Made by a program: the position numbers and the translations under genes
Part shown: piece by piece, positions 3,651 through 39,163 of the stretch
Layout of the letters: every line of letters begins with the position of its first letter
How positions within the stretch are numbered: the stretch's first letter is position 1
Notes under the pieces: model-generated
The model's input: the letters and a program-made list of their open reading frames with translations, nothing else
The model's database searches: none
Told to the model about the DNA's origin: nothing
From: Nemertoderma westbladi
Lineage: Eukaryota > Animalia > Xenacoelomorpha
Length of the DNA: 40,669 nt
Assembly: GCA_032718475.1 (NCBI GenBank)
Contig: JAUCBJ010002351.1
Location: forward strand, 1 to 40,669
Direction of reading: 5' to 3'

Positions 3651-6600
3651 TTACGTTATGGAGTCCCTAGATATTTGTCGGATTAGGGAAGTGGTCGTAG
3701 GAAGAGTATCTTGCCTTCCATAGTTTCCGGACAGTTTTTGGTCTCTTTCCAGTAAACATAAACGACTAGCTGGGTGATTGAGTTGTTGTGTTACTTTCTC
3801 CGCTCCCTTGACCTGTCTAATCTCCGCCGGGGTAAGATGAGGAGGCCATTGTTCTTCTTCTTTACTTAAGAAGTCGGATCCACCTAACCAGCCTGGAGTA
3901 TCTATCAGTTCTTGAGGAGTTGCTCCTCTGGAAGCGATGTCGGCTGGATTAATCGTCCCAAGGCAATGTCTCCATTGATCTACATTGGAGTTAATATCGT
4001 CATTATCTGAGGAGTATGGTGTTCCCTCAGTTGGATCGTCCACATCACTGCTCTCCACTTCCCATTCCTTTACTTGGTATACCTGTTGTTGAGGTAATCT
4101 CTCTTTGAGAGTTCTACGGGAAGGGCCAGTGAAGTACCAACCTACTCTAGTTCTTACCGCATAGGTTTGTAGTGGCTGCGGTTGAGCAGGCCGATTCTCC
4201 AATGTCTCGAGAGCCTCATGCGCCTTTTGGCCGATGAGTATTTGCACTCCAGGATAATCTGTCTGGAATCGAGGTATCTTAAGATGTTGGATGCTCTCAT
4301 CCTCGTCCCAATTAAAAAGGTCTGCTTGGGTAGTAGCGAAGTTCTTTATAGCCACCATTTTTACCGACCTTATACCTTGTGCTCCTAATTTATCCTGGGG
4401 GGTGGACAACACACCTACATAGTAATCTGCCATTAGGGTAGATTTCCAAACCTGCATAATTCCTAACATATTCAATTTAGTCCGGAATTTGGGTTGTCCA
4501 GCAAAGATATCTTCGGCTAGTTCTTGATCGATGAATGTTCCTGTGCTGCCGGAGTCAAGGAGGGCGTTCACTATGTAACTTTTGTTAGGACCATGAACTC
4601 TTACCTGCACTACAGGAAATTCTCTGATTCCTACGTTGGAAGTTGGAGCTTTCCAAGATGGTTGTCTGGCAAAAGTAGTTGGGGGGAACTCATTGTCGGT
4701 GTCCTTTTCATAAGTAAGTGCTCGATACACTGCGGTATTGATTAGATAACAGGATTCGTTGGCGTCGGAGAATTCGTCAGTATAGAATCCTTCCATCTCA
4801 GATTCTTGATCAGTGTCGTTTACATCACTGAATTGGACATGTAGTTCGGGCTCACTTACCTGACTCAGTTTGTCTCGATCGAACTCACTGTGTAACAAGA
4901 TGTGATGTTTCGCGCCACACTTTGTACACTTTATGTCGGAGTAACAGGTTCGCCATTGGTGTCCTGGTCTGAGGCAATTATAGCATAACCGCTTATCCCA
5001 TACGAATGCACGTCTGTCTACAAGGGATTTCTTTAGAAATTCAGCACACGCACTCAAACGGTGGGTCCCGTCGCACAGCGCACAGTTAGGTTTTATGTTA
5101 CTCACTTTACCTTGGGTAACTTGATGCACTCTCGTTTTTTCTTCAGGTTTTCTTCGGTGTATTCTGTTAGGAGACTGAGGAGGGGTCTTGGCAGCCTGTT
5201 CTCTCCTATCGTTGTTTCGAGCCTTGTATTTACTTACGTCTTTTGAGGTTTTGTCAACATAGTAAGATCGATCTGTGTCTTTCCCGCTGTCCTCTTCTTG
5301 AGAGGCTTGGCTTTCGCCGTCGTCAGTGTAACATACCGGTGTTACTCTTCTCCTAGAAGCGGGTTTTTCACTTACCTTATTTTCCGATGTTTTCTCTCTG
5401 GACTGCTTGATGAGTTGTAGTTTTACTTCACCATCTAAGAAGGACATGAGATCAGCTATGGTAGGACTTCGTCGTTGTTGTTCATTCATGTACAACACTT
5501 TCTTGTCCCAGCGTGTACATACTCCACCCTTTGGTAAAGTAGAGACTACGGCTCCAATAACCATGGAACTCTGATATTCATGCGACTTACCTAACCAGTC
5601 CAATTGTCTACAGATCTCTTGAATCTCATCGGAAAACTCTATAATCCCACTACTAAGGAAGTGTCGGGGGGCTACTAATTTTGCATACAAATACTTAGCT
5701 ATGTTATCCTAGTTACCATACCTGATGTTTAATGTATCCCATACTTGTCTTAATCCTTCTGGATGTCCAATAAACTTTAACGCCATTAACCTGGGAGGTC
5801 CTTCCAAGCACTTGATGAGGAACCTAAGTTTCTCTCCGTTAGATAGTACAGAGTTTTGTATGCTATCTTTGTAATATTCGTTGAAAGGTAACCATTTCAT
5901 CTCATCTCCATTGAATTTGACGATCTCTCCCACTTTGACCGCTTGGCGGGCTTCTGTTCTAGCCATCTGACGCGTAAAGCTTTCTTGGGCCATCGTGTTA
6001 TTTAATATCGAATTATCGGTATATAAATTTCTCGGATCATTGTCAGGTCTATAAGGGATATCATTAATAACAGGTCTATAATCACCCTTAATAGGGTTTG
6101 CTATAGGAGTTTCTACTTCACTAGCAGTATAGATGCGTGTAGGCTCCACACCTTGCGCATGTAATACTTCAGACCTAACAGGTTGACACAATTTTACAGG
6201 GGGTATCGGTATTCCCTTTTGGATATTGACTAATTTGTCGCGTTCTAGCGCGATACTTTGCTGCACTTCTTGCAATTCGGCCCTACTTTCCCTTACTGTT
6301 CCCTTAAGTTGGTAGACAGTCTCCTGCATCTGTCCGAGCAGGAGATTCATCCCCCGCCGTCCCTCTTCTACCCACTCGACCGCCGAAGCGGGAGTCGCCA
6401 ACATTGTAGCGGGCTGACGTGGGAGGACGGGAGACAAATCTTTGATTTCTCTCTCAGCTTCCAGGACAGGGATATTCTCATGGACTGTTCTACCGGGCAC
6501 AGGCAGTGTAGTACTGTGTAAAGGGAATTTAGAGTTAAGCTCTGGAAGTACAGGGGTCTCTAACACAGGAGTGACTTTGGGAACGACAGGCCTAATTATT

Positions 6601-6704
6601 TCAGGCTCATCAACTATAGTAGGAAGTTTTTTGACCTTAATAATTTGGTCTGTAGGTTCTATACTACTTAAGTCTGTGCTAGCTAGTCTGTCACCAGTCT
6701 TGTC
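3651..6704 (-). pseudogene. gag: Gag-protease with in-frame deletions of RT, most of RNase H and integrase
   Basis: ORFs 5709..6566 and 3651..5690 are one frame with a single TAG at 5709-5711 (RYGN*DNIAKYLYAK); the frame stays open upstream to 6704. After protease the sequence jumps to NVDQWRH..NPADIASRG (about 3990), then to HPASRLCLLE (about 3780). No YxDD or DDE motif. Confidence 0.9.
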
Positions 6705-6837
6705 CTACGCCAAGCAGCCCGTGTAGTACCGGGGTTAATTTAACTATAACGGTATGTGTAACAAACACAATTACTGTAGGAATAAACTTGGGGACATGAA
6801 TGTTGCGAATAATCGCATAAACTCTGAACAATAAATA

Positions 6838-7355
6838 TTACGCTACCCGTACAGAATACTCAAACAAATACAAACCAAACGCTGGCAGACTACCACCAAG
6901 CCTAAATAAACTACCGTACGTGTAGATTCCGAAATGGTTAGTTAGTATGCGTTCTAACACGGTAGTACGACTTATTCTTTAAGAGGGGATTGACCTTACA
7001 GCTATGGCTGCCCCAACTTACTAACTGGCACTTTATCAGACAAACTCTACACACGCAGCAATCTCTTCAGACCTAATAATAGCTAGACAACAATCCAGCC
7101 TACAAAATATCTGAGTAATAACTATTACGGTACCCGAACAGACCACACAAACAAACACAGGCCAAAACGCTGGCAGAATACTGTCAAGCCTAAATAAACT
7201 ACAGTATGTGCAGATTCCAAAATGGTTAGTTAGTATGCGTTCTAACACGGTAGTACGACTTATTCTTTAAGAGGGGATTGACCTTACAGCTATGGCTGCC
7301 CCAACTTACTAACTGGCACTCTATCGGACAAACTCTACACACGCCGCAATCTCTC
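6838..7355. repeat. Tandem duplication (period about 288 bp) in the element 1 leader
   Basis: GGTAGTACGACTTATTCTTTAAGAGGGG... at 6961 and 7249 with near-identical flanks. Confidence 0.9.
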
Positions 7356-7658
7356 CAAACTCAACAACAATCTGACAACAGTCCGGCCTACAATTATCTG
7401 AACAATCTGAGCAGACTTACACGTCTTCAGCTCAATATTAACTTACATGTAAATAAAACCGACAGAAATAAGTAAAATCTCAATAAAAAACCAGGGCTGC
7501 AGTCCCTGATTAAATATCAATATTAACTTACTAGGAAATAAAACTGACAGAAATAGACCTAAGTAAAATCCCAATAAAAACCAGGCGTCCCCGATTTAAT
7601 ATTGAGACCTACCGGTATACAATAATCAAAATCGAATAATACTAATGTACTTATACTG

Positions 7659-7850: not shown

Positions 7851-9110
7851 TGTACGCGCTTTTGAAGACCTTTAGCAGTTTAACCTGCCAAAATTTATAT
7901 GTCTTTTGGTTTATAAATAGACTTTAGAAGATTACAAATATTTAATACCAATAAACACAACATTAGCAGAAGCCAGCCTAGTGCGCGTCCATTCACCCGC
8001 TGGATATACCCGGGAGACTGGATTCTGAGGGCTTAGATTATTATTGCAGTGTAAGCTTACTGTATTGTATTATTCGATTGATCGTTAATAAATAATTTCT
8101 GACTAATATTATTCACTTTCGGGAAATATTAACAGTTCCTTTAGGACGTGGCGCTCTATCTAGGTAAACAGAGATATGACTTATACTAATCACAACGGTA
8201 AGTCGGTAAGGCTTATGATTCACGTATGAGGCGCATTCTTTAGGAAATGCTTAGTTATCAATCACAATCAGGCACACTACCGGTAACACACAATACTGCT
8301 CACTATTTGCCGACCGTCAATGAATTTTATCATATATAAAGAGAACAGCAACGGACCAATGTAGTGCTTATCAAATAGCATCAAATTCACTACATACACA
8401 ATAATATAAGTCGCAATCGCTGTATATAACCCGTCTCTCTAACCTGTAGTGTATCAAGAAAATTGGGAAATTTGGGTTCTTTATATATGTTCTCCAAATA
8501 ATATTCAACCAAAACACAACAGTAAATAGCAGTATAATAATGTATGTTGAACCGATAATGCAAGAATAGAAACAAGTTGATATGAATTGATATATGATGT
8601 GATAACAGTTATACGCTCTATAATTTAAGCCTACTAATGTTTCTTCTAAAGTATGAAAACTAATTGACTCTAGAGCCAGTGTTCCTGGCCTAGATAGCAA
8701 CAACACAAAGTATCACAAAAAACAGTAAGACTGAACACTCCTAGTATGATCGGCCGAATATCTACACGTCGACAGAAAAAATCGCTCTGATTGGCTCAAA
8801 CCAAACAAAGAACCGTGCGTCCAATGGCTGTTTCCATGCCAGCAACCAGCTGCTAGATGTCGCAATCTGAATCATCAAGGCCAAGCCGTGTAAAGGTATT
8901 TGGTGAATTACGGGTTTTTTGCCTTACCATGTCCGCCAAAGCAGGTATATAGACGAATGACTTTTATGTCCGTTAAAACACCTGTAACGGTACCTTGCGG
9001 GCGAGGGGAATATATGTACAGTTAGAGAACCTTTTAGAGTATTCCAGCGCCTGGGGGGAAACTGGATTGCGAAGCAAAGGGGCCAGTTATATCCCACAGA
9101 AGCTTTTACA
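7851..9110 (-). repeat. 5' LTR of element 1 (1260 bp)
   Basis: TGTACG...TTTACA, matching both segments of the 3' LTR. Confidence 0.95.
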
Positions 9111-11580: not shown

Positions 11581-12217
11581 TATTATTATTATAAAGAGCG
11601 TCAGCCTGCGTTTAATAAATATATTTTAATACAAAACAGGTCGAACGCAAAGAGGCTTATAATGAAGACGAGTACTGCATTGATTATATTCCTATAAACC
11701 ACCTGGCTTTGCATATTGAACGTGCGTTTGGAAATAAGTTCGTGCTACCCTTCCGTGGGTGGTAGATGTCGCGGTTATGTATTGGTGGGTGGGGGGAGGG
11801 GGGGGGGGGGGTGCAGATTAAAAGGGGTGAACACTTACTGTCCCCCTTTCTTTGATTAATTGGTGGTGTGGGTTAATCTCTCATAACCTGATTTTGTGAT
11901 ACAGTCGCACAATTTTAATTTGTATCTCATAACTGGGCCTCGTGCTGCGCGAAGGCCCCACGAACGTGTGTAATCCCGCATAGACCGAGGAGTCGCTTGT
12001 GACTTTTGGAGACATCCAATTGGTACCACTGAGCAAAGAAATTTGCAGAACCCCTAACTTCATCGAATTGACTGATATCGCGGATATATGTGAGCCAGTA
12101 TCTTCTACTCCAGATATCTTTAAAACTAAGCAAGATATGGGAAAACGGTTTCCATGTACTTGGTTCAGCATGAAATGAAATTCTTTTTACATTAATGCGC
12201 ATTAATTTACATTAAGG

Positions 12218-12649
12218 CTTAAGGTCCGATTATTTAGAGTAGCAGTAGTTCCAGTACTCCTTTATGGGAATCCATGCTGGGCTTAACTACTGAGGGCACC
12301 AAATCTCTGATTGGCACATTCACAAGAATGATACACCGGGTTCACTGTGTCAAGTACAATGCACACATCTCCAACCAGACAGTATATAACATTGGAGGTG
12401 ACTCTTTGGTTCCCCAAGCTTGACACTAGAGCAAAGCCGCCTCCGCTTTGCAGGACATTGCTTTTGCCGTGAGGACCAGCCAGTGCATAATCTTGTGCCA
12501 GTGCAGCCCATGACTTTCTTGAGACGCATCTTAAAGGACACTGGCCTTGAAGATGCGATGATATAGCAAATGTCATGGGTGATAGGGAGTTGTGGCGGCG
12601 CAATTTTGTTGACAAGCTGGCACAGCATTCTTAAAAATGCAGCTGCAAT
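12218..12649 (+). mobile_element. RTE-type LINE 3' fragment (decayed)
   Basis: High similarity to the reverse complement of 20865..21320 and to 22842..23130 (LRFAGHC.RREDQPVH motif; ends CAGCATTCTTAAAAATGCAGCTGCAAT). Confidence 0.85.
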
Positions 12650-13454: not shown

Positions 13455-15111
13455 AATTTTGGTACCAGTACCAAATTTCGTACCCATCACCAAAAAGTTC
13501 AAGTTTGTAAGCGGATTCAATCCCTGTACTACCCAGCGCAAAATGGGTAAAGTGGCTTTTTACCAATTATATTTGGGAAGGTGACATTACTAATATAATG
13601 TCACCTAATAACCAACTTATGCAATACACATTGCCAGCCACGAACAGAGTTGAGAGGCCATAAGCCATCTCAGGGGACAAAGGGGCCAGCAATTGGGGAT
13701 AGTGGCAACAGGGAGTGGCGAGATGGAGATTAATTAGGTTAGCCAATGATGGAATGGGAAAACAGGTGATTGGAACGCACCCATTGGCCAGGCCACTTAG
13801 AACAGTAGGAGTAACTAATATGTGTTAGTAATATAACCGTTGTACTTATTGATTCTGATTCAGTTGGTATCTGTAGAGTTATGAGACCGGAACGGTTTTT
13901 AACCGTCGTCATTACCATGCTATTATATTCTGACTGTGCTATTATTACTATCTGACATTACAACAACTGGCACTAAAAACTCAGTTATTCAAACGGCCTT
14001 CGGCCTTAACATTCAGACTACAGCCTTTCAGCAGCCTACGGACGTGGCGACGCGTATAGCCCAAAACAACACACCGGTCGGGGTTCAGACGCCAACTCCT
14101 GAATCCCGTCACAAAGTTTGAGATATCCAGTGCTGTTTTTATTGATTCCATCGGATTCAGGACCTTCTTAAACCCATATGACGCAAGAAAAAAGATGATA
14201 CTATCTCTTGATCAATTTGCTTATTTTCAAAAATTTGGTGCTGGCACCACAATTTTCACCCACCGGCGAAAAATACAAGTTTGAAAACTCTTATGCAATT
14301 TTTACTTATTCCATTGAATTCAGAACCCTCACAATCCCGTATAACGCAAGAAACAAGGTGACACAATCAATTGATATATTTGGTGGTTTTCAAAATATGG
14401 AGCTAGCACCAAATTTTGCACCTACTTCAGAAAAATACACGTTTGAGAAATGAGAAGTCTAGTTGGATAATTATTTTCTCTAATAAATTCGCAACCGCAA
14501 TAAACCTTTAAAACGTGAGAAATAAGTTATCACAAGCAATTGAACTATTGAATGGATTTTAAAATTTTCGTGCTGGCACCAAATTTTACACAAAGCACAG
14601 AAAAATACAAGTTTGATATGCCTGGTGCAACTCGTATATATTCCATCGAAACCAAAACCCTAAAAAACCCCCACTCCGCAAAAAAACAGGTTCAAACAAT
14701 CCATTTACAAAATTGACATATTTCAGAATTAGGTGCTGGTACCAAAATTTGGCACCGCCGAAAAATACAAGACTGAAATTTCGAAATTAATTTATATGAA
14801 TTCCATCTAATTGCAAACACCAAAAACGGTGTAAATCAAAAATAGAGATGTTACAAATCATATTTCATGAAATGTAAATTTCAAAAAAACGTCTCAAAAA
14901 AGTGCCAAAAGTTGGGTTAAAAAATGTTGCTATAACTCGAAAACTTCCCAATATTTTTGAAAACCGTTTCAACCATTACGAAGACAATAGATTGTTAGGA
15001 AAAGTCATAAAACTTCAGATTCTCAACTGCGCATCTTTCAGAGTTATAACAAAAAAAAACACGGGTGTTCATATTGACCACCCCCCCACACCCTGGGTTT
15101 AATAGGGTTAA
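13455..15111. repeat. Diverged tandem array (period about 165 bp) in a probable DNA-transposon remnant ending in a piggyBac-like AGGG-TTAA
   Basis: GTGCTGGCACCA.A.TTT...GAAAAATACAAG near 14237, 14399, 14569 and 14732, with a further copy near 13460; AGGGTTAA at 15104-15111. No matching left end found. Confidence 0.55.
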
Positions 15112-18036: not shown

Positions 18037-20165
18037 GATTCCCCGTACTTAGTTCCAATTTAAGCTTCATGCGAATTTAGTTCCAATGGAAGCGAATTTA
18101 GTTCCAATTTAGGCGAACTTAGTTCCAATAACTGGAGAAAAACGAAAACTAATTTAGTTCCAATGGATGCGAATTTAGTTCCAATGGATGTGAATTTAGC
18201 TCCAATGGATGCGAACTTAGTTCCAATGCATGCGAATTTAGTTCCAATGGATGCGAATTTAGTTCCAATGGAAGCGAATTTAGTTCCAAAGAGGCGAGCC
18301 ACGTAGTTGGCGAAGAATCTGTTTAATGACACTATTAAGAGGCTGGTTAAACAATAATTGTAAATAACTAACCCAAAACGCCCAACGGTATACAGACGTT
18401 TCGGCCTAGGACGTTTCGGTCCAGGACGTTTCGGCCTGGACATTTCGGCCCGGACGATTCGGTCCGGACGTTTCGGCCCATGACGGTAACCGAATGAAAA
18501 GGCCAACTTGTTTGATATGATAATAATTATTCATTAAAATTATAATTATTTCACAATAACATACAAACACTTAATAAAATATCTTTCATGAAATGGCTAT
18601 TTAATTTACTTTTATTTCAAAATAAAATAAACATTAGGGAAGTGGTGCTCTGGTTCCATAGACAATTCGCCATCAATTATGTTATGCGGCCGAAAAAATG
18701 CAAGTCAGAACAAAACTTTTGGTCTCGAGTGCCACATTGCTAATATACAGTACTACTAAAGTGAATCAATTTCAAGAACCATTTAGGGCTTAAATCTCGT
18801 CTGATCGATATATTTTGGAGATACTTCATTAACTTTAAACATTACTCAATTGATAATTCTTGTAGCTGGACAGTGTATTGCAGCTATGTCTTAATGATCT
18901 GCTGAAACAATAACTATCATCTTCGATGATAGATGATTTATACCCGTCGATTTATACGCATACATTTCATCTAAATTTAAATTTAATACGCATATATTTT
19001 ATCTCATTCCATATGACATCCAGTCTGTCTCATAATTATTAGCAATGCCCCTTTAATGGAATATTTCTTATCTATTATATTTTTAAGACCAACATTAAAA
19101 TACAGTAATTTTAATTCGGTGTATTTTAATGTACTTTATTTATTGACTCACATTTTAAAATACGTATGTTTTTTTTATGGGGGAAAGCCCATCATCATAA
19201 CTCTAAAGTTAATTTGTCAGCATGTTATCTTTGTTCTAAGTTACAGTATGGTGTAAATTTATATTAATAAATAATAAGTTATTATTTATATATATAAGAA
19301 CTTCGATCTTGACGACTTTCAAACAGGTGTCGGAGCAGTTCCTACTGACAACTCCTCTTGTAACGAACGTAACAACTACAAAACAAATATATTGAATAAC
19401 TTATTATTAATAGCTTATTTAAGGGAGTAAATTTAATCTTTGGGCCAAAACGTCCGACAAGCAAATCTTGTATTTCATTCATTGGGCCGAAACGTCCTAG
19501 GCCAAAACGTCTTAGACCGAAACGTCTGTTACCCACGCCCAACCTCCTAACGAAAACAATCTTATCCCAAACAACGCCCAAGCTCATAACCAAAACTACG
19601 CCCAACCTCCTAACCCAAACAACGCCCATCCACCTAAACCGAAACAACTAGTAAATATTGTATTTGTTGTGATAAATGGCACAATGTGCATGACTTGAGT
19701 ATATAATACTACAGACTCAGTCAGTCAGTATCAGTACACTCGTCATTAATATATAATTCAAAATGTGTAATTATACATTTAATAATAATTCGTTTTTTAA
19801 AAATGACGGAACGGTTTTACAATTATTTACAATTATTGTTGACCCTGACCCACCCCAAATATTGACAATACGCAATATGCTTCGCCTACTACGTAGCTAT
19901 CCCCACGATTGAAACTTTGAAACTAAGTTCGTACCCATTGGAACTAAATTCGCTTCCATTGGAACTAACTTCGTATGCATTGGAACTAAATTCGCATGTC
20001 GCATCCATTGGAACTAAGTTCGTTTTGATATTCTGGGATTGAAACTAAGTTCGCCTCGATTGGAACTAAGTTCGCTTTGTAAAATTTATTTTGGAACTAA
20101 ATTCGTTTCAATTGGAACTAAGTTCGCCTTTGAAAATGTGCGATTGGAACTAAGTTTGTGCTACC
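18037..20165. mobile_element. Foldback/Mutator-like non-autonomous element with 21-bp subterminal tandem repeats
   Basis: 9-bp TSD GGGACCTCG (18028-36, 20166-74); GCGAATTTAGTTCCAATGGAT array at about 18048-18290, inverted at about 19910-20155. Confidence 0.85.
18387..19534. mobile_element. Mutator-like non-autonomous element with GACGTTTCGGCC subterminal repeats
   Basis: 9-bp TSD ACGCCCAAC (18378-86, 19535-43); ends GGTATACAGACGTTTCGG...CCGAAACGTCTGTTACCC. Confidence 0.9.
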
Positions 20166-20864: not shown

Positions 20865-21858
20865 TTAAGAATGCTGTGCCGGCACAAATTTGCACCGCCA
20901 CAACTCACTATCACCCATGACATTTGCTAGATCATCCGCATCTCCAAGGCCAGTGTCCTTTTTAAGATGCGTCTCAAGAAAGTCATGGGCTGTACAGTCC
21001 AGATCCACTAGGCTTATTCACTCCATGAGGCCGCCAAAGCACAAGATTATGCACTGGCTGGTCCTCACGGCGAAAGCAATGTTCTGAAAATCGGAGGCGA
21101 CTTTGTTCTAGTGTCAAGCTTGAGGGAACCAATGAGACACCTCCAATGTTATATAGTGTTTGGTTGACGAAGTGTGCATTGTACTTGACACAATGAACCC
21201 GACGTAGCATTCTTGTGAATGTGCCATCCAGAGAATTGGTGTCCTCAGCAGTTAGAGCCCAGCATGGACTCCCGTAGAGGAGTACTGGAACTACTGCTGC
21301 TCTAAATAATCGGACCTTAAGTTTCCGATTAATTCTCGGTGAATTCCCAATCCTGGAAAGCCTATTCAAGGCTGCCCATGCCTTTCCCTTACGAATTCGA
21401 AGGTCCTCACCTGACTTCCGAATCCATGATCCTAGGTAACAGAAGTCGTCCACATGCTCAACCATACCATCCTTTGCGCTTATTATGCTCATCCGGTCAG
21501 AGACTTGCTGAGGACTTTCAAAGTTAACTGTGAAAATTGTGTTCTTTTTGGAGTTAACAAAAAGACCAACACTAGAAGCAGCCTGTTCTAATGAACTGAG
21601 GAGCCGTTGGGCTCCCTCTAGTGATTCTGAGAGTACTCCTAAGTCATCAGCAAAGTCTAGATCAGTTAGGTACTTGGCAGGATTTCCTCGACTTCTGGAG
21701 CCAGTAGGTGGAGTTATCATCACCCCATCATCATTATGATGATCTAGATCCAAGGACATGCGTAGAACATAGTCAACCACAATTATGAACGAGAATGGCG
21801 CAAGTGTGTTTCCTTGGAGGACGCCCCATAACACTTCAAATGGTTCTGTATCACCGTT
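20865..21858 (-). pseudogene. RTE-clade reverse transcriptase, C-terminal half
   Basis: GVLQGNTLAPF.FIIVVD, LDFADD, FCYLGS, LLYG..CW, LRF..HC motifs; frameshift near the 3' end. Confidence 0.9.
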
Positions 21859-22841: not shown

Positions 22842-23164
22842 TGGAGGTGTCTCATTGGTTCCCCCAAGCTTGACACTAGAACAAAATCGCCTCCGCTTTG
22901 CAGGACATTGCTTTCGCCGTGAGGACCAGCCAGTGCATAATCTTGTACTTTGGCAGCCTCATGGAGTGAATAAGCATGGTGGACAGCCCATGACTTTCTT
23001 GAGACGCATCTTAAAGGACACTGGCCTTGAAGATGCGGATGATCTAGCAAATGTCATGGGTGATAGGGAGTTGTGGCGGTGCAATTTTGTTGACAAGCCG
23101 GCACAGCATTCTTAAAAATGCAGCTGCAATGCAGCATGCCGATCCTAGTAGTAGTAGTAGTAGT
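22842..23164 (+). mobile_element. RTE-type LINE 3' end with (TAG)n tail
   Basis: Same family as the copies at 12218 and 20865; RLRFAGHCFRREDQPVHNLVLWQP...DRELWR; TAGTAG tail. Confidence 0.9.
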
Positions 23165-27803: not shown

Positions 27804-29593
27804 TGTCACGGTGACTACCTCATACAGTCATATATGCCAGTACTGCAGTACGCAGATATGGCAGTATGGAGGAAGCCGTTTAGAAAGTTTCAATATAAAA
27901 AAACGCCGAAAGGGACGAACCGCAATCTTATATATAAAATACTTTCTTGGTCCCCGAGCCAGACCAGTCAGTCGTTATGCTGGGCCCTTCTGTCAGCTAT
28001 GTTCTCTTTTTAATAAGAGAATTGACACTGTCTATCTAATTATGAATTAATTACCTTACTATAAAATGTGTATAAAATGTGCTCTGCATATGCCAACCCA
28101 ACCCAAAGTCCACCCCGATTGGCCCACCCAAAGTCAGAAAGTCGCCCAAATACAGAAATGTCCACCCTGATTAGCCCACCCAAACAGCCAAAGTCTGAAA
28201 GTTGTAAGAGATAAATAATGAATAACGTGAATAGCGTACGCTCCAGGCAGCCAGGACGGTAGAAAGGTGCCAGGATCTGAGGCTGGACAGGTTTATCCGA
28301 TTATATGAGTAATCTGGTCGTTAGATAGTTCGGTAGTTAATCGTAAAATCTCCTAAAAAATCAGAACATTCACCAGCACTAACTCTGACTATGATTAAGA
28401 CAAGCTGACAAGGTCTGTACCGCTGTACCGGTAACAGTATACAGTATGTTCCGCAGTTACTGATTCCAAGCCTGTACAGTGCCAGCTGTCCTGTCTCTTT
28501 TTTGGGCTTACATTTTTGAGGCCTCAGAAACCAGCTAGTCCCAACCGCCGGGCGTACGCAATACCGCTCTCCTAATTTTTTCATATAATATAACAAATTA
28601 GCACAAATAGTACGCCCATTTGCCTCTAAAACTAAAAAACCTTCATGGGCAATAAATCAATAAACTAAATAATATTACACTTTAATCGTATTAGAGTTTG
28701 TATAGTGTATATATAGAGTACATCCAATATACCTCCAATGAGGTGAGAGAAAATAAAACGTACAGTAGGACTCGATCATTGACCGCGGACCTGAGCATTA
28801 TTGGTCGCAAAAGAGTTCTGAAGTTATCGCAATATCAATGAGCTGGTTTAGAGGACTAAATAATCAATCGTTGGAGAACCAGTGATGCAGAAATCGAAAG
28901 ACGAGCACCAAAGTCGAGCCGCAGTCATTAGAGAACCCTGATCAAATCTATTATCTAAATAATATTTTTCGTAACTGATAGCGATAATATTCGCCATTGT
29001 GATATCTTCTGCTTGTCATATTAATCGGTAGATGAGCGTCTCTGGTAGATAATTCAGTATTTACCGCTCATATTATAATTAATTTTTCTTCATTCCGTTT
29101 ATGAAAACCTTTGCTGGGTTTATTTCCATAAGTGATGATACAATGTCAATAGGAGTTAAAATCATCAGGACTACTTCGAATTTGGCACAGCCTCGGAGAT
29201 GATAATATTTTTCGTACCCAGGATATTATGTAATCCATAATCCTTCCAAATCACCCCCCACAACCCGACCAACTGCATCCCACATCCCATATAATGCAAA
29301 CCAAACCGCACCCCACATCCCATATAATACAAACCTAACCCTAGAGCTCATTTTCCTTTTCGAGTGGGTTTTTTTTATTTATTTTTTTTTATTATTGTAC
29401 TTTCGGTTTATAAAATTACGAAAACCGAATGAAAAATATTACCCGAGGACAAAAAAAGTGTTTTTTGGGAGTTCTGAGCATATTTTTAATTTAATTAAAA
29501 TACTTTATTCATTCTCAAAAATAAATTTTATTTCAGAACTCAAAATAATGCGGCATTTATAAGGTAGCAAAAAATAAAAAATATTTTTAATTA
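27804..29593 (-). repeat. 3' LTR of element 2 (right boundary inferred)
   Basis: Starts TGTCACGG; the first 504 bp are confirmed by the other LTR. Right end inferred from PPT-like GAGAGCGG (minus, 29594-29601), similar to the element 1 PPT, though no terminal CA is present. Confidence 0.55.
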
Positions 29594-32500
29594 CCGCTCT
29601 CATGCACATTTACGTTCTGTGGTGTGTTGTGCAACGCCATTTCTGAGTCTTGTTCTAGGAGGCAGAGTTTGCGAATAGGACGTTCTAGAACCTGACCAGA
29701 GGGTACCTTTAATAACACACTTCGCACAAGTCCATCTTTGCCGATTTTTGGCTCAATAACCTGAGCAATTTTCCAATTTTTGCGAGATATCAGTGGTTCA
29801 TGAATCAAAACTAAATCTCCAGTTTTAACATTCTCTACTCTGCTGAACCATTTTGTACGCAGTTGTTGACTGGGTAGATAGATAATACTGCAGCCAAATC
29901 CGCCAGAATGTATTTGTTAAAAGTTGCAAAGTTTTCCACATGCGTTTTGAGTTGATGTCTCCATCGTCAATCTCGCTGATAGGTACCATTGTGGCTCTCT
30001 TTGTATACAAAAATGTGCCGGTGTAAGTGCTTCCACACATTCAGGTGAGTGTGACATCTTTGTTAAAGGTCTCGAGTTTAATACACACTCAACTTCACAG
30101 AACAATGTCCGCATAGCCTCATCATCGAGGTATGTGTAGTTTAATTCAGCAGGCAATATCTTATATAAGGATCTCTTGACACTTTGGACTAATCGCTCAT
30201 AAGTGCCACCATACCATGGTGAATATGGTGGTGTGAAGTCCCAGTCTATAAATTGGATCTGATAGTCCTTCAATGTTTCTTCGACTAAAACATTATTCCA
30301 ACCTTCAATTGACTTAGATATCTCTTTGTTAGATGCAACAAAGTTGCCACCATTATCAGACGTTATAGATTTTGGTGTACCTCGTCTGGTGATGAATCGC
30401 CGTAAAGCCAGTAAGAAAGAGTCCATATTAGCGTGAAACATTAGATCGATATGAATGGCACGAGTTGTCATACAGACCATTAAAATGCCCCATCGTTTGA
30501 TTATTGATCTCGCGCGTTTGACCTCAATTGGTCCGAACATATCAATCCCACAATTTGTGAATGCAGGTTCAAAAATGGCAAAACGGGTTTCTGGTAAATC
30601 TGCCATCTGTTGTTGCATGAGTGGTGCATTAAAGCGTTGACATGGTAAGCAAAATTTCATGACATTTTGTAATGTTCTCCAGGGGTAGATGAGGTAATAA
30701 TGTTGTCGTAAATGAGCTAATATGTGATCTCGCCCTGCATGGTTAAGATCCAGGTGGGTATCATAGATCAACTGTTGCAATAACAATGGCTCTCTGATGA
30801 GTATTGGATGAATTGTGTTTTGTGATACTGGAGCAAATGTTAAGCGAGTTTTAACTTTAACAAGTCCATCTATCATGGTGGTATTGTATTTAGATGGTTT
30901 GATTGGTTTATCATGTTGGTGTTGGGAATATAGATTATCATCAGACAGCACTTGAGAGAGACGCAAACGTTGTTTGAGAGTCACTGAACGTTCTTCTGCA
31001 GTAATTGGTTGCAGAAAATGTTCTGGGATTGTGGTCACATCCTGGGCTTTCTTCCAACATCTCCAATGTGTGTATCTCTTAATTCGACATGGCTCATCTA
31101 TTGTTTCTCGTAGAGACTTATTGTTCCTCAAAACATCTTCAAGCCAAGGACTCAAACCCCTAGAGATATCTGGAAAATTTGCATCTGTCGGTTGCTTCTG
31201 GTATTGTTCATTGACTACTGCAACCACCTCAGTTAATCCTTGCTCTTTATAGGACTGATTAACACTATATTTATTACCTTTAATTAAAAGTTTTGATCGT
31301 TTTGGTTGTGGTTTAGATGGTATGGTCTCCGCTCTCGCAGGGAGCTGTAGATCCTGAAGAGGTTCAGGCCAATACTCTGCTGTCTTAGAAAGAAAGTCAG
31401 GGCCATTCCACCATACCCTGTTGTTGATTATCTCATCAGCATAAGCTCCACGTGATGTGAGATCTGCAGGATTGTTGACACCTGGTACATGAAACCACTG
31501 CTCTACTTGGGTGAATTTAAAAATATGATTCACTCGATTGGTAACATAAACACATAGTTTATGTTTTTGATTATGTAGGTATTGAATTACAAGTGATGCA
31601 TCTGTCCAATAGAATAAGTGCAATTGTATAGTGAGTTCCTTAGAGATCATTCTAGACAGGTCTACACCCATAACTGCAGACTGCAATTCTGCGCGTGGTG
31701 TCATTAGTCCCTTGGTTGGCATCACACGGGATTTCGATGCCGCAAATGCAACCTGTATATTAGAAGGGGATGCTTCGAATCGCAAATAAGCCACTGCTCC
31801 CATGCCCTTTGAACTTGCATCAGAAAATATATGCAGTTCCAAAATGTCATGCTTTCGGAGTCCTTTGAAATATGTTCGCTTAATACGTAGTTGTTCAATA
31901 TTCCTGAGATCATTTTCCCATCGTCGCCAATCTTTTTGGAGTTGAATAGGTAGTGGATCATCCCAGTCAAGGTCTTCTTGCCACATTTCTTTAATCAATA
32001 ATTTTGGCAATAATATTACAGGGTTGAGAAATCCTAATGGATCAAAGACCCCAGCAAGTTTTGACAAACATTTACGTTTTGTAGATGAGATCTTCTGTAT
32101 GTCAATCTTCACCTTAAAGTAGAACTCATCTTCCAAGGTTGCCCATCTCATCCCTAAGATTTTAGTGACAGGTAAGGGATCAGAGTCCAGATCAATATCT
32201 GGATTTGCACGTTGATTGGCAGGGAATGATTCAAGAAACTCTTTGCTATTGCTGGCAAATTTGATTAAGTTGAAACCACCCTTCTTCAAGCAACTTTGAA
32301 CTCCGTTGTTTGGTCTTGTTCAGAATCAGCAACATCATCCATATATATGTTGGTTTGAATAGTTTCAATAACTGCAGAATCAAATTGATATTTATTATCT
32401 TCAGCAGTGCTATATATAATACTTTCACAGTTACTTGGTGAAGATATTACACCAAAAGGTTGAGTTGTCATCCAATATTGAGTGGGTTCTCCTTCTAGAG

Positions 32501-34757
32501 ATTCGTCAGGCCACCAGTAATATCGCAGGCTGTCTCTATCTATAGATGGTACTCGAACCTGCAGGAACATACCTTCAATGTCTGCGGTAAAGGCATAATC
32601 AAATTCGCGGAATCTGAATAAAATCCCATGTATCGAATGGAGAAGATTTGGACCAGCCATGTATTCAAAGATGTCTGTATTCAAAGACTGACCACGATAT
32701 TTTGCTCTACAATCAAAAACAACTCTAACCTTTCCAGGTTTGTTTTCATTGGTGACAAAGTGATGAGGCATGAAATAGGATCTTGGTCCGAAATCCAGGG
32801 AATGAGATGGGACAGGTTCAGCAGCTCCAATATTCAAATATTTTGTCATCTGTATATGATACATCGCAAGGTAATCTGGCTTTTGTAAAAGCCGTTTTCT
32901 TAATGATTTAACACGCCGCTTAGCTAAAGACTCATTATTAATTAACTGAGGAGGATCTTGGCGCCATAATAATCCTACTTCATAGTGACCATCAGAGAGT
33001 TTTTTGCGAGTTCGACTCTGGATCTCAATGGATCGCTGTTCTTCAATGGAGAAACCAATATCAGTTTCATGAGGGAGGTAGGCATCTACATCAAGCCAAT
33101 TTCGGATTGTTCTATCTAGTTGGAGGTCTCTTTCAAGATTATGACTTTCATCATTGGATTCATCCTCTGATATGCTGGTAGGACTACTTTCAATTGTTAA
33201 TAAGGATTTAATATCTGCACAAATATCAAACTCTTGACCATTATCATTAAAGATATCATCCAACTCTCGTTGCATGACATTCTCAAAACATTGACAAACA
33301 GATTCATTTGTACTTGACTCAGTAAAGTTAATATGAGTGGTGCTACGTTCCTGCAGAGTCCTATCTGAAGGACCAGAGCAGTACCACCCAAGTGATGTGA
33401 GAGCTGCAAATGGCTTTGTCATCCGGTCTTCCACCATAGGGTCTGCTGGGATGACTTCTAGAATCCTGAAAATTTCAGGGCAATTCTGTCCCAGCAACAT
33501 CATAATTTTAGGATAACTTGAGTTTGGGATAGGAATATTATTATCCTTGACGAAATTATCATCCTTCCAATCATAAGGAATGCCAAGTGAATCAGCTAAT
33601 TCCTCCATATGGATAAACTTTACATTTTTGGCTGTCTGTCCATTAAAACTACTTAGAGCTGGACTTAGGTTAGCCTTAGCTACCACTGTACTAATTTCCT
33701 TACGCCAAGAGACAACTGTCAAGCGAAGTTTTGCAGCAGTGTGATCAGAAAATACCTGGTCGAATATTGTACTATCCAGGAATGAAGATGAACTGCCAGT
33801 GTCAATAAGTGCATGAACAATGCAAGATGACTTGTCGCCAGTGATCTTCAGGGTAAGAATTGGAAATTCACGAACTACTTGGCCCCCTCTGTGAATACGA
33901 CAGATTACAATTGAAGAGGAGTCCGACATTTCACCCTCAGAGTCAAATTCACTTGAATTCATTTTGTCATCATCAGTATCAGAAGAGACTGCATTTACTT
34001 TAGTTTCAAAGTGCTTCTGGTCATTACTTGACATCTCCAGTATATGAAGTATGGTATGATGGCTTCGACCACACTTGCGACATTTATTTTTATTTTTACA
34101 TTGGGATTTCCTGTGCATATTTGATAAGCAATTATAACAAAGACCTTGAACCTTACAATAATCTCTTCGTTGATCTAGTGTCATGGCAAGAAAATGTTCA
34201 CATTTGTATAGGGGGTGTGGTCCTGTACACTGAATACATTTCTGCTCACCTGTAGCTTTGGATTCCTTCTGTTGGTCTTTCAAATTACTCTCCTTAATAT
34301 AATCTTTCTTAGATTGAGGAAGGTTGATTTGCCCAACATTGGCTCTGTTCACTGTTTCGTCATCTTGTCCGGAATCTACAGCAAGGTTAGTTTTCATAGA
34401 CTTTACCTTTCCCTTAGTTGATTGATCATGAGATTCCGAGAAGTAGAGTAAAATCTCAACTTCTTCTTCTAAGAATTGGGAGAAATGTGAGGCTGTGATA
34501 GCTGTATTTGATTATTGGTAGTAACAATGTGTTGGCAAGCTGTATTTTTCGAGGTGTTTGTTATTATACATTTTATTATAAGAAGGGATCTAGGGGGTCT
34601 TAACCTCGAATGATAAGTTTATTTTACCGAAAATAACTTATCTTTTATTGGCGCAATTGTAGGGCTAATCCCATCCATGCATACTTTTTAACCGGGTAGT
34701 GTACAAATTTAGGAATCGCGTAATTTTTCTTGAAATTAATATCTCATATCTCTCCAA

Positions 34758-34800
34758 ACCACGTACGCGTTTCGACCTTACTGGGTCTCATCAGCGTGGT
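34758..34800 (-). ncRNA. Type I minimal hammerhead ribozyme
   Basis: Minus strand ACCACG-CTGATGA-GACC-CAGTAA-GGTC-GAAA-CGCG-TA-CGTGGT: intact core, 6-bp stem I, 4-bp stem II, palindromic ACGCGT stem III, GUA triplet. Confidence 0.92.
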
Positions 34801-34862
34801 GTCGGATTCGAACCTGGGACCTCGAGGCGGAAGCCGAGACTACAACCACTAGGCCACAGGTT
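34798..34862 (-). promoter_or_regulatory. tRNA-derived internal Pol III promoter (A and B boxes) fused to the hammerhead
   Basis: Minus strand TGGCCTAGTGG (A box), CTCGGCTTCCGCCTCGAG (anticodon-arm-like, TCC), GGTTCGAATCC (B box). Confidence 0.8.
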
Positions 34863-37800
34863 CTTGAGATATGGAGTATTAATTTCAAAGACAGCTGCCA
34901 TTTTATTAGCCCCTGATTTTTGATTATTGGTAGTAACAATGTGTTGGCAAGCTGTATTTTTCGAGGTGTTTGTTATTATACATTTTATTATAAGAAGGGA
35001 TCTAGGGGTCTTAACCTCGAATGATAAGTTTATTTTACCGAAAATAACTTATCTTTTATTGGCGCAATTGTAGTTGTATTTGGTATACCATTTCTTTCTA
35101 ACCTCAGCCTTTTCTTATACCATCGCCGACGAATACCAGAGTCTAATTTATTTACAACATCTTTGAGTATCTTTGCATTATCAAGTTGATGTTCCACACC
35201 AAGACGCTTTAATTGTTTGAGGGTTCTGTTAAACTCATCAGCAAATTCTATAACTTTAGAACTAGAAGTTCCTTTTATAGGTTCAATTTTTAACAGTCCT
35301 TCTATAAGTGAGTTCACAATATTTTCATCTTTGCCATAACGTCTTCTTAATTCACCCCAAGCTTGATCAAAACCATCTTCTAAGCCAACAAAGGTTTGAG
35401 CGAGGCAGTGGAGTGCAGTGGAGCATCTTCCAACATTGAACAAAGGTAGTTGTGCTTCTCTTGATCTGAGAGTGGGTAAATTAGTACATTTGTTTTAAAA
35501 TGATGTTGGAAATTTATCCATTCATCGGGGGCGCCAGAAAATTTTATGAATTTTAATTTTGGTAAATTTCTATCCGCTGAAAGACGGCTCATGGCCTGAA
35601 CTATGCTTTCCTCAGCTGCAGACTGATTTGTTCTTTTTTGGGAAAAGTCTAGAAACCCAGGCGTATTGTATTTTCTCCTAGTATCATGTACATCTTGTTC
35701 GATTACGTGTTGGTTAGTTAGTTCTTCTATACGATCAGTCATTTCTTTAGAGTTCTGGCGTACAATATCTTGAACGAATTTCTCGAATTGTGGCGGGATT
35801 GACATAGGATCTGCGTTATTATCTGTGATGATTTTCTGAGTATTTGTATTGTTTGGGCCAATACTGTAGGAAGTTAAATTGGGCAATTCCTGTCGGTGGT
35901 GCGAAGCTAGACGTATTCGTTCCTGTTCAGATTGTTGACGTTGAGCTGCTTGCTGATTTAATTCATTACTCTGTTGAAGAACAGTGGCAGTTAGATGCTC
36001 ATTTTGGATTTGCATATCAGCCATTATCTGTCTTACCTCACTATTAATCAAATGTTGCTGAATATTGCCTGGTCTATTAGTAGGTTGTCGCGGAGATACT
36101 GTATATTGATGGCTATTTCGCAGGCTGTTATATTGCTGAGATGGGACATAGGTAGGATTAACAAATCGATGATTCTGCGGTAGTGTTCCTAAGTTTGAGT
36201 GTGGAATGAGAGGGGCTGAATTTATTGCTGGTTGTTGCTGAACTAACTCAGACATAGGATGATTCAGCTCCAATGAAGGATTTTGAAGATTAGATACAGG
36301 TATACCACCAATTTTCAACTCACTTGAACATTGTCGAGAATCTTTTGCTTCCCCAGCATGGTTCGGAGATGTATAGTTATACGGAAGAATATTTTTATTT
36401 ATTAAAACAATAGGCGATAATGCTCGTGGAGGCTGTTCATTAGATCTAGTCACTGGGACTTTGGAATTCGATCGACTCTGGTCATCTAATCGAGTTGAAG
36501 TGAGGGGGTGAGCTACAACATTATGTCCTGTTTGCAAATTGGCTGCAGAAATGGCGATATCATCAGGAATATTGGGATTTACTTCCAAGTCATTTTCATT
36601 GAGGTCCATGTCATCCTCATCAGATTCCCCAGGCTCATCATCTTGTGACAAATAACGTCGGATAGAGTGTGGCAGTGAAGTCAATGGATGAATACTAGAC
36701 ATCCGCTCATCAATTGGATCTCCAATAGCCTGTGCAGCTTCCCTAGCAGCTCTCCCCAATTTTCTCAACTCTTGTTGTCGAATGGCTAGTTGTTGATCCA
36801 TTTGTAGTTCAAGTTGCTTTCGCTTGAGTTCCTCTTCAATATCCTGCTCCTTTCTTTTTCTCTCCCGTTCCTCTGCTTCGCGGACTAAAGATCTTTTCTT
36901 GGCCTTTGCGTCTATTTTTAGTTTTTCCATTTCAACTCCCTTCTTAAGTAAGTCTATAGCTATTTTTTCATTCTCTTCAAACTGGTGGAATCTGGCTTCC
37001 TTGTATGCTGCATCTTCCGCAAGTCTTCTTCTGTTTTCTGAGATGACAGAAGGGGGTTCGCTGACTTGACTCAGTGAACAGTTTGGGGTTTTTCCAGTGA
37101 GAAGAGTCATACCTCGTGTGCCACAAATCTCAGCTAGTTTATTAGCAATTTCTTTCATACGGACAAGATGTTGTTGTTTTTTGTCTCGGGCTCTATTTAC
37201 AAGAGACTGAAAATTACGGGCTTCTGCCACCATTTTAAAATCTGAGTTAAGTATGAGTAATTTATTTCCCTTAGATTCTAATTCCATATAGATTTGGAAT
37301 ACCTGATCCTCCCGTAATGATTTAAGATTCTCTGGGGTGAGCTTAGAAGTTAAACTGTTGAGATATCGAGTGGAGGAGGCTAGGTATCCTGATAAACTCC
37401 GGCCCAGTCTCTCCTCAGAAGCACAAGCATCAATATCGTATGACCATAGGGGGGAACAAGCATCAAGGACTCGTTGGCGTGACTTATCAGAAAATCGTCT
37501 GACAGCTATGCTCAAGCACTGATTCTCATCTAGGATTGGTAGTAATATGGAAGTTGTATGATCCACTGGAGTAGGTGGTAAAGAAGTGGAAGGATCAAGG
37601 ACTGTTTGATCTCCATCATATTCTCCACTGATTGATGAAGATTCACTTCTAGGAAGTGACTTAGTGCCAGTCGCCATAATATATATTTTTTTTGTTAAAT
37701 TGTTTTTGATCAAATTGGGAAAATATAAGTTGAGTAAATATCATCAAATTATTGAAATTATATTTAAATGGAATGTACTGGTGTCTGAATAGTACAAATA

Positions 37801-38645
37801 CAAATCAATACTGGTACAGTATTAACAGTAAATATTACAGTACACCTTCACTACTACCGGTACTTGTTAATATAATATTAATACTACTATAGGATACTAT
37901 GTTGAAATAAACCAGCAATGTAATTAACACATGTACATGTAACCCTTTTAAATAATCAGGTCCGTTAATACTATACCTCCCTTTTTATATAGGCCTACCG
38001 GTATATGTTGTGTTGTATTATATATAATACATACAACTCTGCATGTATGCCAATAATCATTTAAAATAATTTATGCTTGCTGCTTTATTTATGGTAGGTT
38101 ACCGGTATGGGTAGCCTATGGGACCTACCAGTCTGCCCGTTAAGTACGGTAGGCCTACTCCTCTAGCAGCCTAGAACTGTAGGGTAAAGTAGAAACACAG
38201 AAACAGGATGCAAATAATTGGAATAAAATGATTGACAAACACAAATATATTTAAACTGGGTTGAACTAATAGCAAGTTGGGCATCCCCAAGAGAGCAATC
38301 CCAGAAAGCTAAAACTGTAAAAGTTCACAGGAATCACTTCTCAGACTGAAAAGTCAGAATATGAGCGAAAATATGCGGTCCTGAGGTGGAGCTCGCAAGT
38401 TCGCAGGATTGGTTGTAATTAAACAGTGACGAGCAGTTTAATTTTGAAATAAGGGCAATGTCTGGCCGTATAACAGCAAACCAGCAGTGTCCTGCCCTAC
38501 CGGGCTACCGGTAGGTGAATGCGAGTTCGGAACTTGGCCACATTGACGCAAAGAAGCACAAACCGCACAGGTTGGTTTGAGAACGCCGAATTTTGATTCG
38601 GGCAATCCTCCTCAACCAACTGCAACCTAACCTATAAAGGAAAAG

Positions 38646-38657
38646 GTTCTGATTTTT
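38646..38657 (-). promoter_or_regulatory. Non-tRNA PBS position of element 2, complementary to LTR site 28356..28367 (candidate self-priming)
   Basis: Minus strand after LTR ...GACA reads AT-AAAAATCAGAAC with no TGG; exact 12-nt reverse complement inside the longer LTR copy. Confidence 0.65.
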
Positions 38658-38659
38658 AT

Positions 38660-39163
38660 TGTCACGGTGACTACCTCATACAGTCATATATGCCAGTACT
38701 GCAGTACGCAGATATGGCAGTATGGACGAAGCCGTTTAGAAAGTTTCAATATAAAAAAACGCCGAAAGGGACGAACCGCAATCTTATATATAAAATACTT
38801 TCTTGGTCCCCGAGCCAGACCAGTCAGTCGTTATGCTGGGCCCTTCTGTCAGGTATGTTCTCTTTTTAATAAGAGAATTGACACTGTCTATCTAATTATG
38901 AATTAATTACCTTACTATAAAATGTGTATAAAATGTGCTCTGCATATGCCAACCCAACCCAAAGTCCACCCCGATTGGCCCACCCAAAGTCAGAAAGTCG
39001 CCCAAATACAGAAATGTCCACCCTGATTAGCCCACCCAAACAGCCAAAGTCTGAAAGTTGTAAGAGATAAATAATGAATAACGTGAATAGCGTACGCTCC
39101 AGGCAGCCAGGACGGTAGAAAGGTGCCAGGATCCGAGGCTGGACAGGTTTATCCGATTATATG
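38660..39163 (-). repeat. 5' LTR of element 2, truncated
   Basis: Matches 27804..28307; identity ends abruptly at 39163, where Gypsy RNase H sequence begins. Confidence 0.95.

Follow-up and report, generated by a model that had tools for sequence, protein, structure and literature searches.

A recent insertion of a putative Penelope-mobilised hammerhead retrozyme with tRNA-type promoter boxes in Nemertoderma westbladi

Introduction

How does a short non-coding sequence, slightly longer than one of its own repeat units and containing an apparently intact ribozyme, come to lie within the gag gene of a retrotransposon? The question is raised by a 564-bp insert (34511..35074, minus strand) in a 40,669-nucleotide stretch of DNA from Nemertoderma westbladi (assembly GCA_032718475.1, contig JAUCBJ010002351.1, positions 1 to 40,669 of the forward strand), referred to below as the window. 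A sequence-only reading of the window had described the insert as a permuted 1.4-mer of a retrozyme with a tRNA-type promoter and a hammerhead, copied by a borrowed reverse transcriptase (RT) from a circular or multimeric RNA. Here, the insert was re-measured, its RNA was folded, and its family was followed in other sequencing runs. The results indicate that the insert is probably a recent, Penelope-mobilised copy of a retrozyme without long terminal repeats (non-LTR retrozyme), of the type known as Sm-alpha in Schistosoma.

Results

Structure of the Insert

The insert comprises 1.37 units of a non-coding monomer of 411/412 nt with a GC content of 39%, which falls within the limits of non-LTR retrozymes (150–450 nt, GC below 50%). 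It is flanked by the two strandless copies of an 8-bp target-site duplication (TSD; left, 34503..34510; right, 35075..35082) and contains two direct repeats at 34507-34662 and 34919-35073 (156 and 155 bp), identical in 155 of 156 columns and differing solely in a run of five or four G residues. The repeat period is 412, then 411. On the minus (sense) strand, the repeat copy at 34919..35073 is the 5′ one, a 5′-truncated second unit resembling a pseudo-LTR. The sense-3′ copy (34511..34662) includes both 3′-end clusters of the family described below, the optional tail between them (34511..34571, minus strand, delimited by loose contig ends) and two hairpins (34548-34555/34603-34610 and 34612-34619/34635-34642). 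Insert length, TSD, repeats and period given in the sequence-only reading were all reproduced, with exact coordinates, and both hairpins that it had named were located.

The two junctions differ in their details. At the sense-3′ junction, the last four bases of the left TSD copy equal positions 34919-34922 inside the element, a short microhomology. At the other junction, base 35074, directly before the right TSD copy, is like neither the element nor the target. Reading the TSD as 8 bp requires this one untemplated base, with a 3-base match to the target beside it; an alternative reading, of 12 bp, contains one mismatch (34499-34510/35071-35082).

The Host Site and the Age of the Insertion

The insertion lies in a Bel/Pao LTR retrotransposon (27804..39163, minus strand), whose LTR blocks (27804-28307 and 38660-39163) have 3 differences in 504 bases and which encodes DUF1759, aspartyl protease, Peptidase_A17, integrase and DUF5641 domains. 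The point of insertion is in gag, beyond the DUF1759 domain. When the open reading frame (ORF) pieces on either side of the insert were compared separately, they matched consecutive parts of related polyproteins, for example residues 164-281 and 289-544 of P0004 and residues 379-479 and 488-1122 of P0008. The reading frame of the host is also broken near 35380-35494, 32286-32319 and 29917.

Matches were found in 12 sequencing runs, seven of them with part of the insert. The analyses cover X1, X3 and X5, which come from three studies of one organism (A), and X4, from a second organism (B) and labelled as RNA by a guess; X7, a sediment metagenome (share 0.10), and X8-X12 are outside the analysis. 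The empty site was present in all three DNA runs (X1, X3 and X5), in one contig each, where 34502 is joined to 35075. These joints skip 572 bases, and eight letters at each joint fit both sides. No filled junction was listed in these three runs. The flanks in X1, X3 and X5 differ from the window at 2–3 positions per ~630 bases and thus come from the same species. Since three independent runs contain the empty site with the 8-mer only once, the insertion is real and recent, and this position is unoccupied in three further samples. What these runs show as the empty site may be allelic to the Bel/Pao copy or belong to a very close paralogue of it.

Promoter Boxes and Hammerhead

On the minus strand, the insert contains a tRNA-type RNA polymerase III (Pol III) A box at 34846..34856 and a B box at 34804..34814, identified with consensus sequences. 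The boxes (34856-34846 and 34814-34804) are 31 nt apart. The B box is the only one in the whole window for the consensus used, and about 1e-5 such A/B pairs are expected by chance. Helix I of a canonical type I hammerhead (34758..34800, minus strand) begins 4 nt after the end of the B box, so that the sequence-only reading was right to place an intact ribozyme directly after the boxes. All core bases are intact, and the cut is predicted from core, Rfam match and fold to lie between 34764 and 34763, after GUA. Helix I has 6 bp, helix II has 4 bp with a 6-nt loop, and helix III consists of one pair and a palindromic tetraloop. The Rfam model Hammerhead_HH9 matches with 26.6 bits (E 0.014 window-wide), and the window has no further match with an E of 1 or less. 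In the folded circle, the pairs of helices I and II are formed with probabilities of 0.76–1.0.

The tRNA-derived head folds in the circle as a long hairpin (34810..34863, minus strand; pair probability 1.0), with its first seven bases paired to the B-box strand in place of an acceptor stem. Neither ARAGORN nor Rfam detected a tRNA cloverleaf in the head, and the parent tRNA is accordingly not named. By this model, the head is a promoter remnant and not a foldable tRNA, a refinement of the tRNA-promoter/hammerhead design proposed earlier, in which the boxes do run into the hammerhead. The sole run of four T residues on the sense strand of the unit (34630..34633, minus strand) is a possible, leaky Pol III stop.

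Head and ribozyme together are enclosed by an imperfect inverted repeat of 23 nt (87%), which had also been noted from the sequence and is placed here at 34730-34752 and 34866-34888. The 3′ arm (34730..34752, minus strand) continues helix I. Because the 5′ arm (34866..34888, minus strand) is located upstream of the head, formation of the stem requires a multimer, a cut monomer or a circle. In these forms, the model predicts that it clamps both cut ends. Folded as a circle, the 412-nt unit reaches −104.6 kcal/mol, compared with −78.9 ± 5.1 for 60 dinucleotide shuffles (z −5.0), and a two-copy co-fold yields an exchanged dimer. None of 12 variant positions checked falls in the boxes or the hammerhead, which is not significant (~0.1 by chance). 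A helix III of the same type is found in HHR_Amex1 of the axolotl, where 6% of the monomer was cut in one hour and the dimer cleaved well (PMC7229834). By analogy, the helix III described here fits the dimer-dependent amphibian type and would be compatible with a stable circle and with uncut multimers alike.

The Family and the Ends of Its Copies

The family is abundant in the same species. Contigs on the stretch number 3342 in X1, 1295 in X3 and 84 in X5. The summed depth of the element is 1e5–6e5 in X1 and X3, compared with flank depths of 39 and 65, respectively (34 in X5); these summed contig depths do not give copy numbers. Assuming a single-copy flank and at most 31-fold inflation of the depth by overlap, the floor is roughly 200–500 copies. 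In X5, two contigs on 34731-34839 and 34932-35057 are diverged pieces of the element with depths of 401 and 512, more than ten times that of the flank. One of them has five changes in the hammerhead; they are decayed pieces within another multi-copy repeat.

Ends of copies were mapped in X3, where 1273 contigs matched a one-unit reference, 306 of them only in part; the rows discussed here are the top 6 of 196 loose-end rows. Three of these six have long unrelated flanks, every one on the sense-3′ side (54 contigs together): before 34923 (16 contigs, agreement 0.42), 34931 (16 contigs, 0.46) and 34984 (22 contigs, 0.44). The alignment breaks off early at 34931 (a variant) and 34984 (an indel), the true ends lying a few bases further out. 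The family thus has two preferred sense-3′ ends about 45–60 nt apart, one at 34923-34931 (32 contigs) and one just below 34984 (22 contigs). The 3′ end of this very copy, 34511, corresponds to position 34923. By their pairing probabilities, both ends fall in predicted A-rich single-stranded loops. The free permutation of copies expected from the sequence alone is not borne out by this clustering.

The other three of the six rows are element sequence. In 19 contigs (agreement 0.81), it continues past 35073 into the next unit, as expected for head-to-tail copies, and the 5′ repeat edge of the insert is therefore not a family end. Fixed ends on both sides, of the kind seen in terminal-repeat retrotransposons in miniature (TRIMs), had been named beforehand as an observation that would speak against a retrozyme; they were not seen among these six rows. 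Several joints in X3 go back within the element, and array lengths cannot be read from such contigs. Opposite-strand joints also occur in family copies in the runs, in single contigs and with no orientation given, and one X3 joint (1 contig) ends exactly at 34763, the first base past the cut.

The Template

The insert includes 210 nt upstream of the promoter together with an uncut hammerhead. Such a copy cannot be explained by a plain Pol III monomer or by a linear monomer that has been cut, which with this start would give no more than 253 nt; the template must have been a circle or an uncut multimer, or else the RT must have jumped between templates. The alleles of the two repeats bear on this choice. 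Both repeats have G at 34518/34930, where the family depth reads A at 99.4% (X1), 99.8% (X3) and 100% (X5), and both have A at 34581/34993, where about 90% of the family depth reads G. These shared rare alleles favour one template copied 1.4 times (1.37 units), and an array of identical rare units would, by the same logic, also give them. In X4, a single contig of 441 letters has the majority alleles and no flank; its length equals 411 + 30, a closed loop at a word length of 31. With respect to origin, what survives of the earlier reading is a recent retrotransposition by a borrowed enzyme from a template that was circular or longer than one unit, given the empty site in 3/3 DNA runs and the 19 head-to-tail contigs; free permutation does not survive.

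Other Features of the Window and of Metagenome Contigs

The window contains a second, unrelated type I hammerhead at 21926-21884 (minus strand), which matches Rfam Hammerhead_1 with 20.5 bits and E 0.028 when 551 bases are searched. It lies at most ~15 bases from the 5′ edge of a truncated RT fragment (21870-21004, 47% to P0013) from a long interspersed nuclear element (LINE) of the apurinic/apyrimidinic endonuclease (APE) type. Compared with the element, it has only the core in common (score 31 versus 26 ± 3.6 for 100 shuffles), and it may be a piece of a Penelope terminal repeat joined to the LINE copy. Tandem units of 14–15 nt like the helix II/GAAA half of a hammerhead occur at 18395-18479 and 19485-19526; the two sets are mutually inverted and lie within a larger inverted repeat block (18044-20156).

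Other repeats of the window include a second Bel/Pao-type element with 411-bp LTRs (82-492 and 8700-9110, 99.5% identical), a DUF1759 match at 5709-6704 and an internal 288-bp tandem pair at 6823-7406. One LINE family is represented by three 3′ fragments that are 81–89% alike (12206-12649, 20865-21321 and 22842-23130), and 14114-14812 is a diverged 163-bp tandem array of about four units.

A motif scan of metagenome contigs for a B box with a hammerhead core gave 39 loci, none of them homologous to the element (best BLAST match 19 nt, in the B box). At 12 of the 39 (L003, L007, L010, L012, L014-L018, L033, L034 and L038), the core follows a tRNA T-arm. A full tRNA-Glu ends directly before the core at 11 of these loci, and at L034 the tRNA-Glu call is ~50 bases off. 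A helix I of 4–5 bp and a helix III of 4–9 bp can be drawn for them, and Rfam at gathering level called none of the eight that were scanned. These loci are possibly a family of tRNA-trailer ribozymes of phages or bacteria, unrelated to the element in the window; the literature search found no paper on tRNA-adjacent phage hammerheads. Another locus, L006, has a GOLLD RNA (126-596) and a gathering-level Hammerhead_1 match (984-1030) in a 10-gene tRNA array.

Discussion

A Probable Penelope-Mobilised Retrozyme

We think it likely that the insert is a recent insertion of an Sm-alpha-type, non-coding, non-LTR retrozyme mobilised by a Penelope-like enzyme. By analogy with the partial tandems of Penelope elements, the 1.4-mer is best read as the product of a fixed start and a variable 5′ stop of reverse transcription. 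If a single pass of the RT stopped 1.37 units on, the direct repeats are therefore the overlap of that pass and not LTRs.

The cycle would begin with Pol III initiation near 34863 within a single array unit and read-through of the only run of four T residues into the unit that follows. From published hammerheads, the weak palindromic helix III is predicted to cleave poorly alone and well as a dimer, so that tandem transcripts would be cut and the monomer would be stable. Helix I and the 23-bp stem would keep the cut ends together for a host ligase, and a 411-nt circle is the predicted result. A borrowed Penelope-like RT/endonuclease may then make an 8-nt staggered cut in AT-rich DNA and start reverse transcription at one of two fixed internal A-rich loops, aided here by the 4-base microhomology. 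Copying would run through the intact hammerhead junction and stop 1.37 units later. With its single hammerhead, the present copy would not itself give rise to a circle, for which about 1.85 units would be required.

The traits on which this reading draws are documented for Penelope elements. [quoted passage not shown] That animal retrozymes are copied from circular RNA by Penelope enzymes has been proposed from co-occurrence and sequence likeness, with the mechanism left open (bioRxiv 10.64898/2026.07.22.740005; PMC7229834).

Several observations weigh against the reading. No autonomous Penelope partner is found among the window ORFs scanned. The tail of ~45–60 nt is longer than the 30–40 nt in print, and the second 3′ end is merely bracketed, just below 34984, where the indel interrupts the alignment. 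The end map comes from one run and 6 of 196 rows, and minor fixed 5′ ends could be hidden in it. The anole Penelope enzyme starts without homology, unlike the 4-base microhomology seen here, and can dispense with the hammerhead in vitro (PMC11167929). On the RNA side, runs of four T on the sense strand are not scarcer than expected by chance (P 0.55), and the match obtained in the hammerhead-model search that the sequence-only reading had recommended stays below the gathering score of 52. The folds have no covariation support, in that 6 of the 12 variant positions break pairs, 3 keep pairs and 3 are unpaired. Since only one of nine predicted Xenopus retrozyme dimers was cleaved in vitro (bioRxiv 10.64898/2026.07.22.740005), hammerhead activity is not to be assumed here. 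Finally, trace tandem DNA is equally expected to give the closed loop in X4, and this contig is thus no proof of a circle.

Alternative Explanations

The closest alternative retains both the element and a Penelope-type enzyme and supposes that the template is always a linear, uncut tandem or array read-through transcript, with circles as by-products. A weak helix III would leave many hammerheads uncut, as in the axolotl monomer of which 6% was cleaved (PMC7229834); the anole enzyme took unprocessed RNA and needed no hammerhead (PMC11167929), and Penelope elements free of ribozymes make partial tandems too (PMC8557442). Between the 5′ end of the insert and the next upstream cut site there is no more than one unit, as a linear dimer allows, and the single X3 joint ending at 34763 is a weak hint that cut linear RNA has been copied. 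The shared rare alleles, however, would demand that the source array consist of rare units identical to one another; the cut ends are predicted to be held by the 23-bp stem, and related retrozymes accumulate chiefly as circles (PMC7229834). We judge an exclusively linear route unlikely, if deserving of serious consideration. Within the Penelope-mobilised reading itself, a circle is somewhat better than an even bet as the template of this insert, and an uncut linear multimer somewhat short of one. A more distant proposal is a tRNA-derived short interspersed nuclear element (SINE) moved by an APE-type LINE, with priming on internal A-rich stretches and the repeat made by a template jump between two RNAs. 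A jump to a second RNA is not expected to hit the same rare alleles. The copy extends 210 nt upstream of the promoter, has no poly(A) or simple-repeat tail, and no loose-end row at the tRNA head is among the top 6 of 196. Traits of Penelope elements include type I hammerheads, partial tandems and tails (PMC8557442, PMC4209133). The A-rich, unpaired 3′-end clusters, the 4-base microhomology with the T-rich end of the target and the LINE RT fragments in the window speak in its favour, and an 8-bp TSD is not exclusive to Penelope; on balance we regard this origin as improbable.

Near-identical terminal direct repeats around a short interior, inserted into an LTR retrotransposon, also recall a non-autonomous LTR element, TRIM or otherwise, whose two LTRs would be 155 bp long. 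Integrase TSDs are 4–6 bp, shorter than the 8 bp found here; plant LTR retrozymes have a TSD of 4 bp (bioRxiv 10.64898/2026.07.22.740005). The insert has no TG...CA ends, and its hammerhead is internal and of type I, not type III and in the repeats. This candidate was largely refuted by the X3 end map (top 6 of 196 rows), in which family copies do not end at 35073 but run from the 5′ repeat edge into the following unit, and it is barely credible. An assembly artefact, with a repeat misjoined into a single-copy locus, would account for the filled site appearing in 0/3 DNA runs. An exact 8-bp duplication, an end at a 3′-end cluster of the family and shared rare alleles are unlike misjoins, and we consider the artefact very improbable.

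Relation to Known Systems

Both the Sm-alpha and the Sj-alpha elements of Schistosoma, which are SINE-like hammerhead retroposons, have a tRNA-derived Pol III promoter straight before a type I hammerhead (PMC6765202), an arrangement present here as motifs. They, too, reach high copy numbers in tandem and dispersed copies, and their promoter lies at the 3′ end of the cut monomer, hence single copies are dead ends (PMC6765202, PMC2770079, PMC8490949). Their unit is ~335 nt, compared with 411/412 nt here, and the likeness is one of layout and not a sequence comparison. The element also departs from Sm-alpha in its helix III of one pair and a palindromic tetraloop, and in that its integration signature has been mapped and its empty site seen.

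With metazoan non-LTR retrozymes, it shares a non-coding unit of 150–450 nt with GC below 50%, a type I hammerhead and a tandem arrangement (PMC7229834, PMC7761336, bioRxiv 10.64898/2026.07.22.740005), as well as a TSD longer than 4 bp, a strongly self-paired circle (predicted here) and a proposed Penelope partner. In a 2020 review, these retrozymes are said to seem promoterless (PMC7761336), whereas exact A and B boxes are present here. Circles and cleavage have been demonstrated for other non-LTR retrozymes; the present one is known from its sequence and predicted fold. Penelope-like elements and their non-autonomous riders such as MRC1 resemble it in their pseudo-LTR partial tandems, two 3′ ends with an optional tail, an 8-bp TSD in AT-rich DNA and a variable 5′ end, and perhaps in inverted joints (PMC8557442, PMC3846280, PMC11167929). 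In contrast to them, it has no ORF, a canonical rather than minimal hammerhead, a tRNA-type promoter and a tail of ~45–60 nt (PMC4209133).

The design is therefore not new, being that of Sm-alpha, and the boxes depart from the general picture of retrozymes but not from Sm-alpha. The literature searched, which included few subscription papers, contained no retrozyme insertion whose ends had been mapped to a Penelope tail and no such layout outside schistosomes; families with promoters may appear in the supplements to the retrozyme papers of 2020 and 2026. What the locus adds is evidence on integration, namely an empty site, an 8-bp TSD, two clustered 3′ ends like those around a Penelope tail, and shared rare alleles.

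Implications

A more specific version of the Penelope-mobilised reading can be put forward tentatively, as something we find plausible but would not bet on: that the family is an active circular-RNA retroelement with its own Pol III promoter within the circle, in which a Penelope RT starting from fixed loops rolls past the ligation junction. If so, a pass of at least ~1.85 turns would deposit a new master copy able to transcribe and cut itself, and the insertion described here would record directly, in genomic DNA, that an RT had run round a circular RNA. The value of the locus is that of a testable, active case for how retrozymes integrate, and, should this version be true, the family would offer a ready system in which to prove the retrozyme cycle, which has so far only been proposed.

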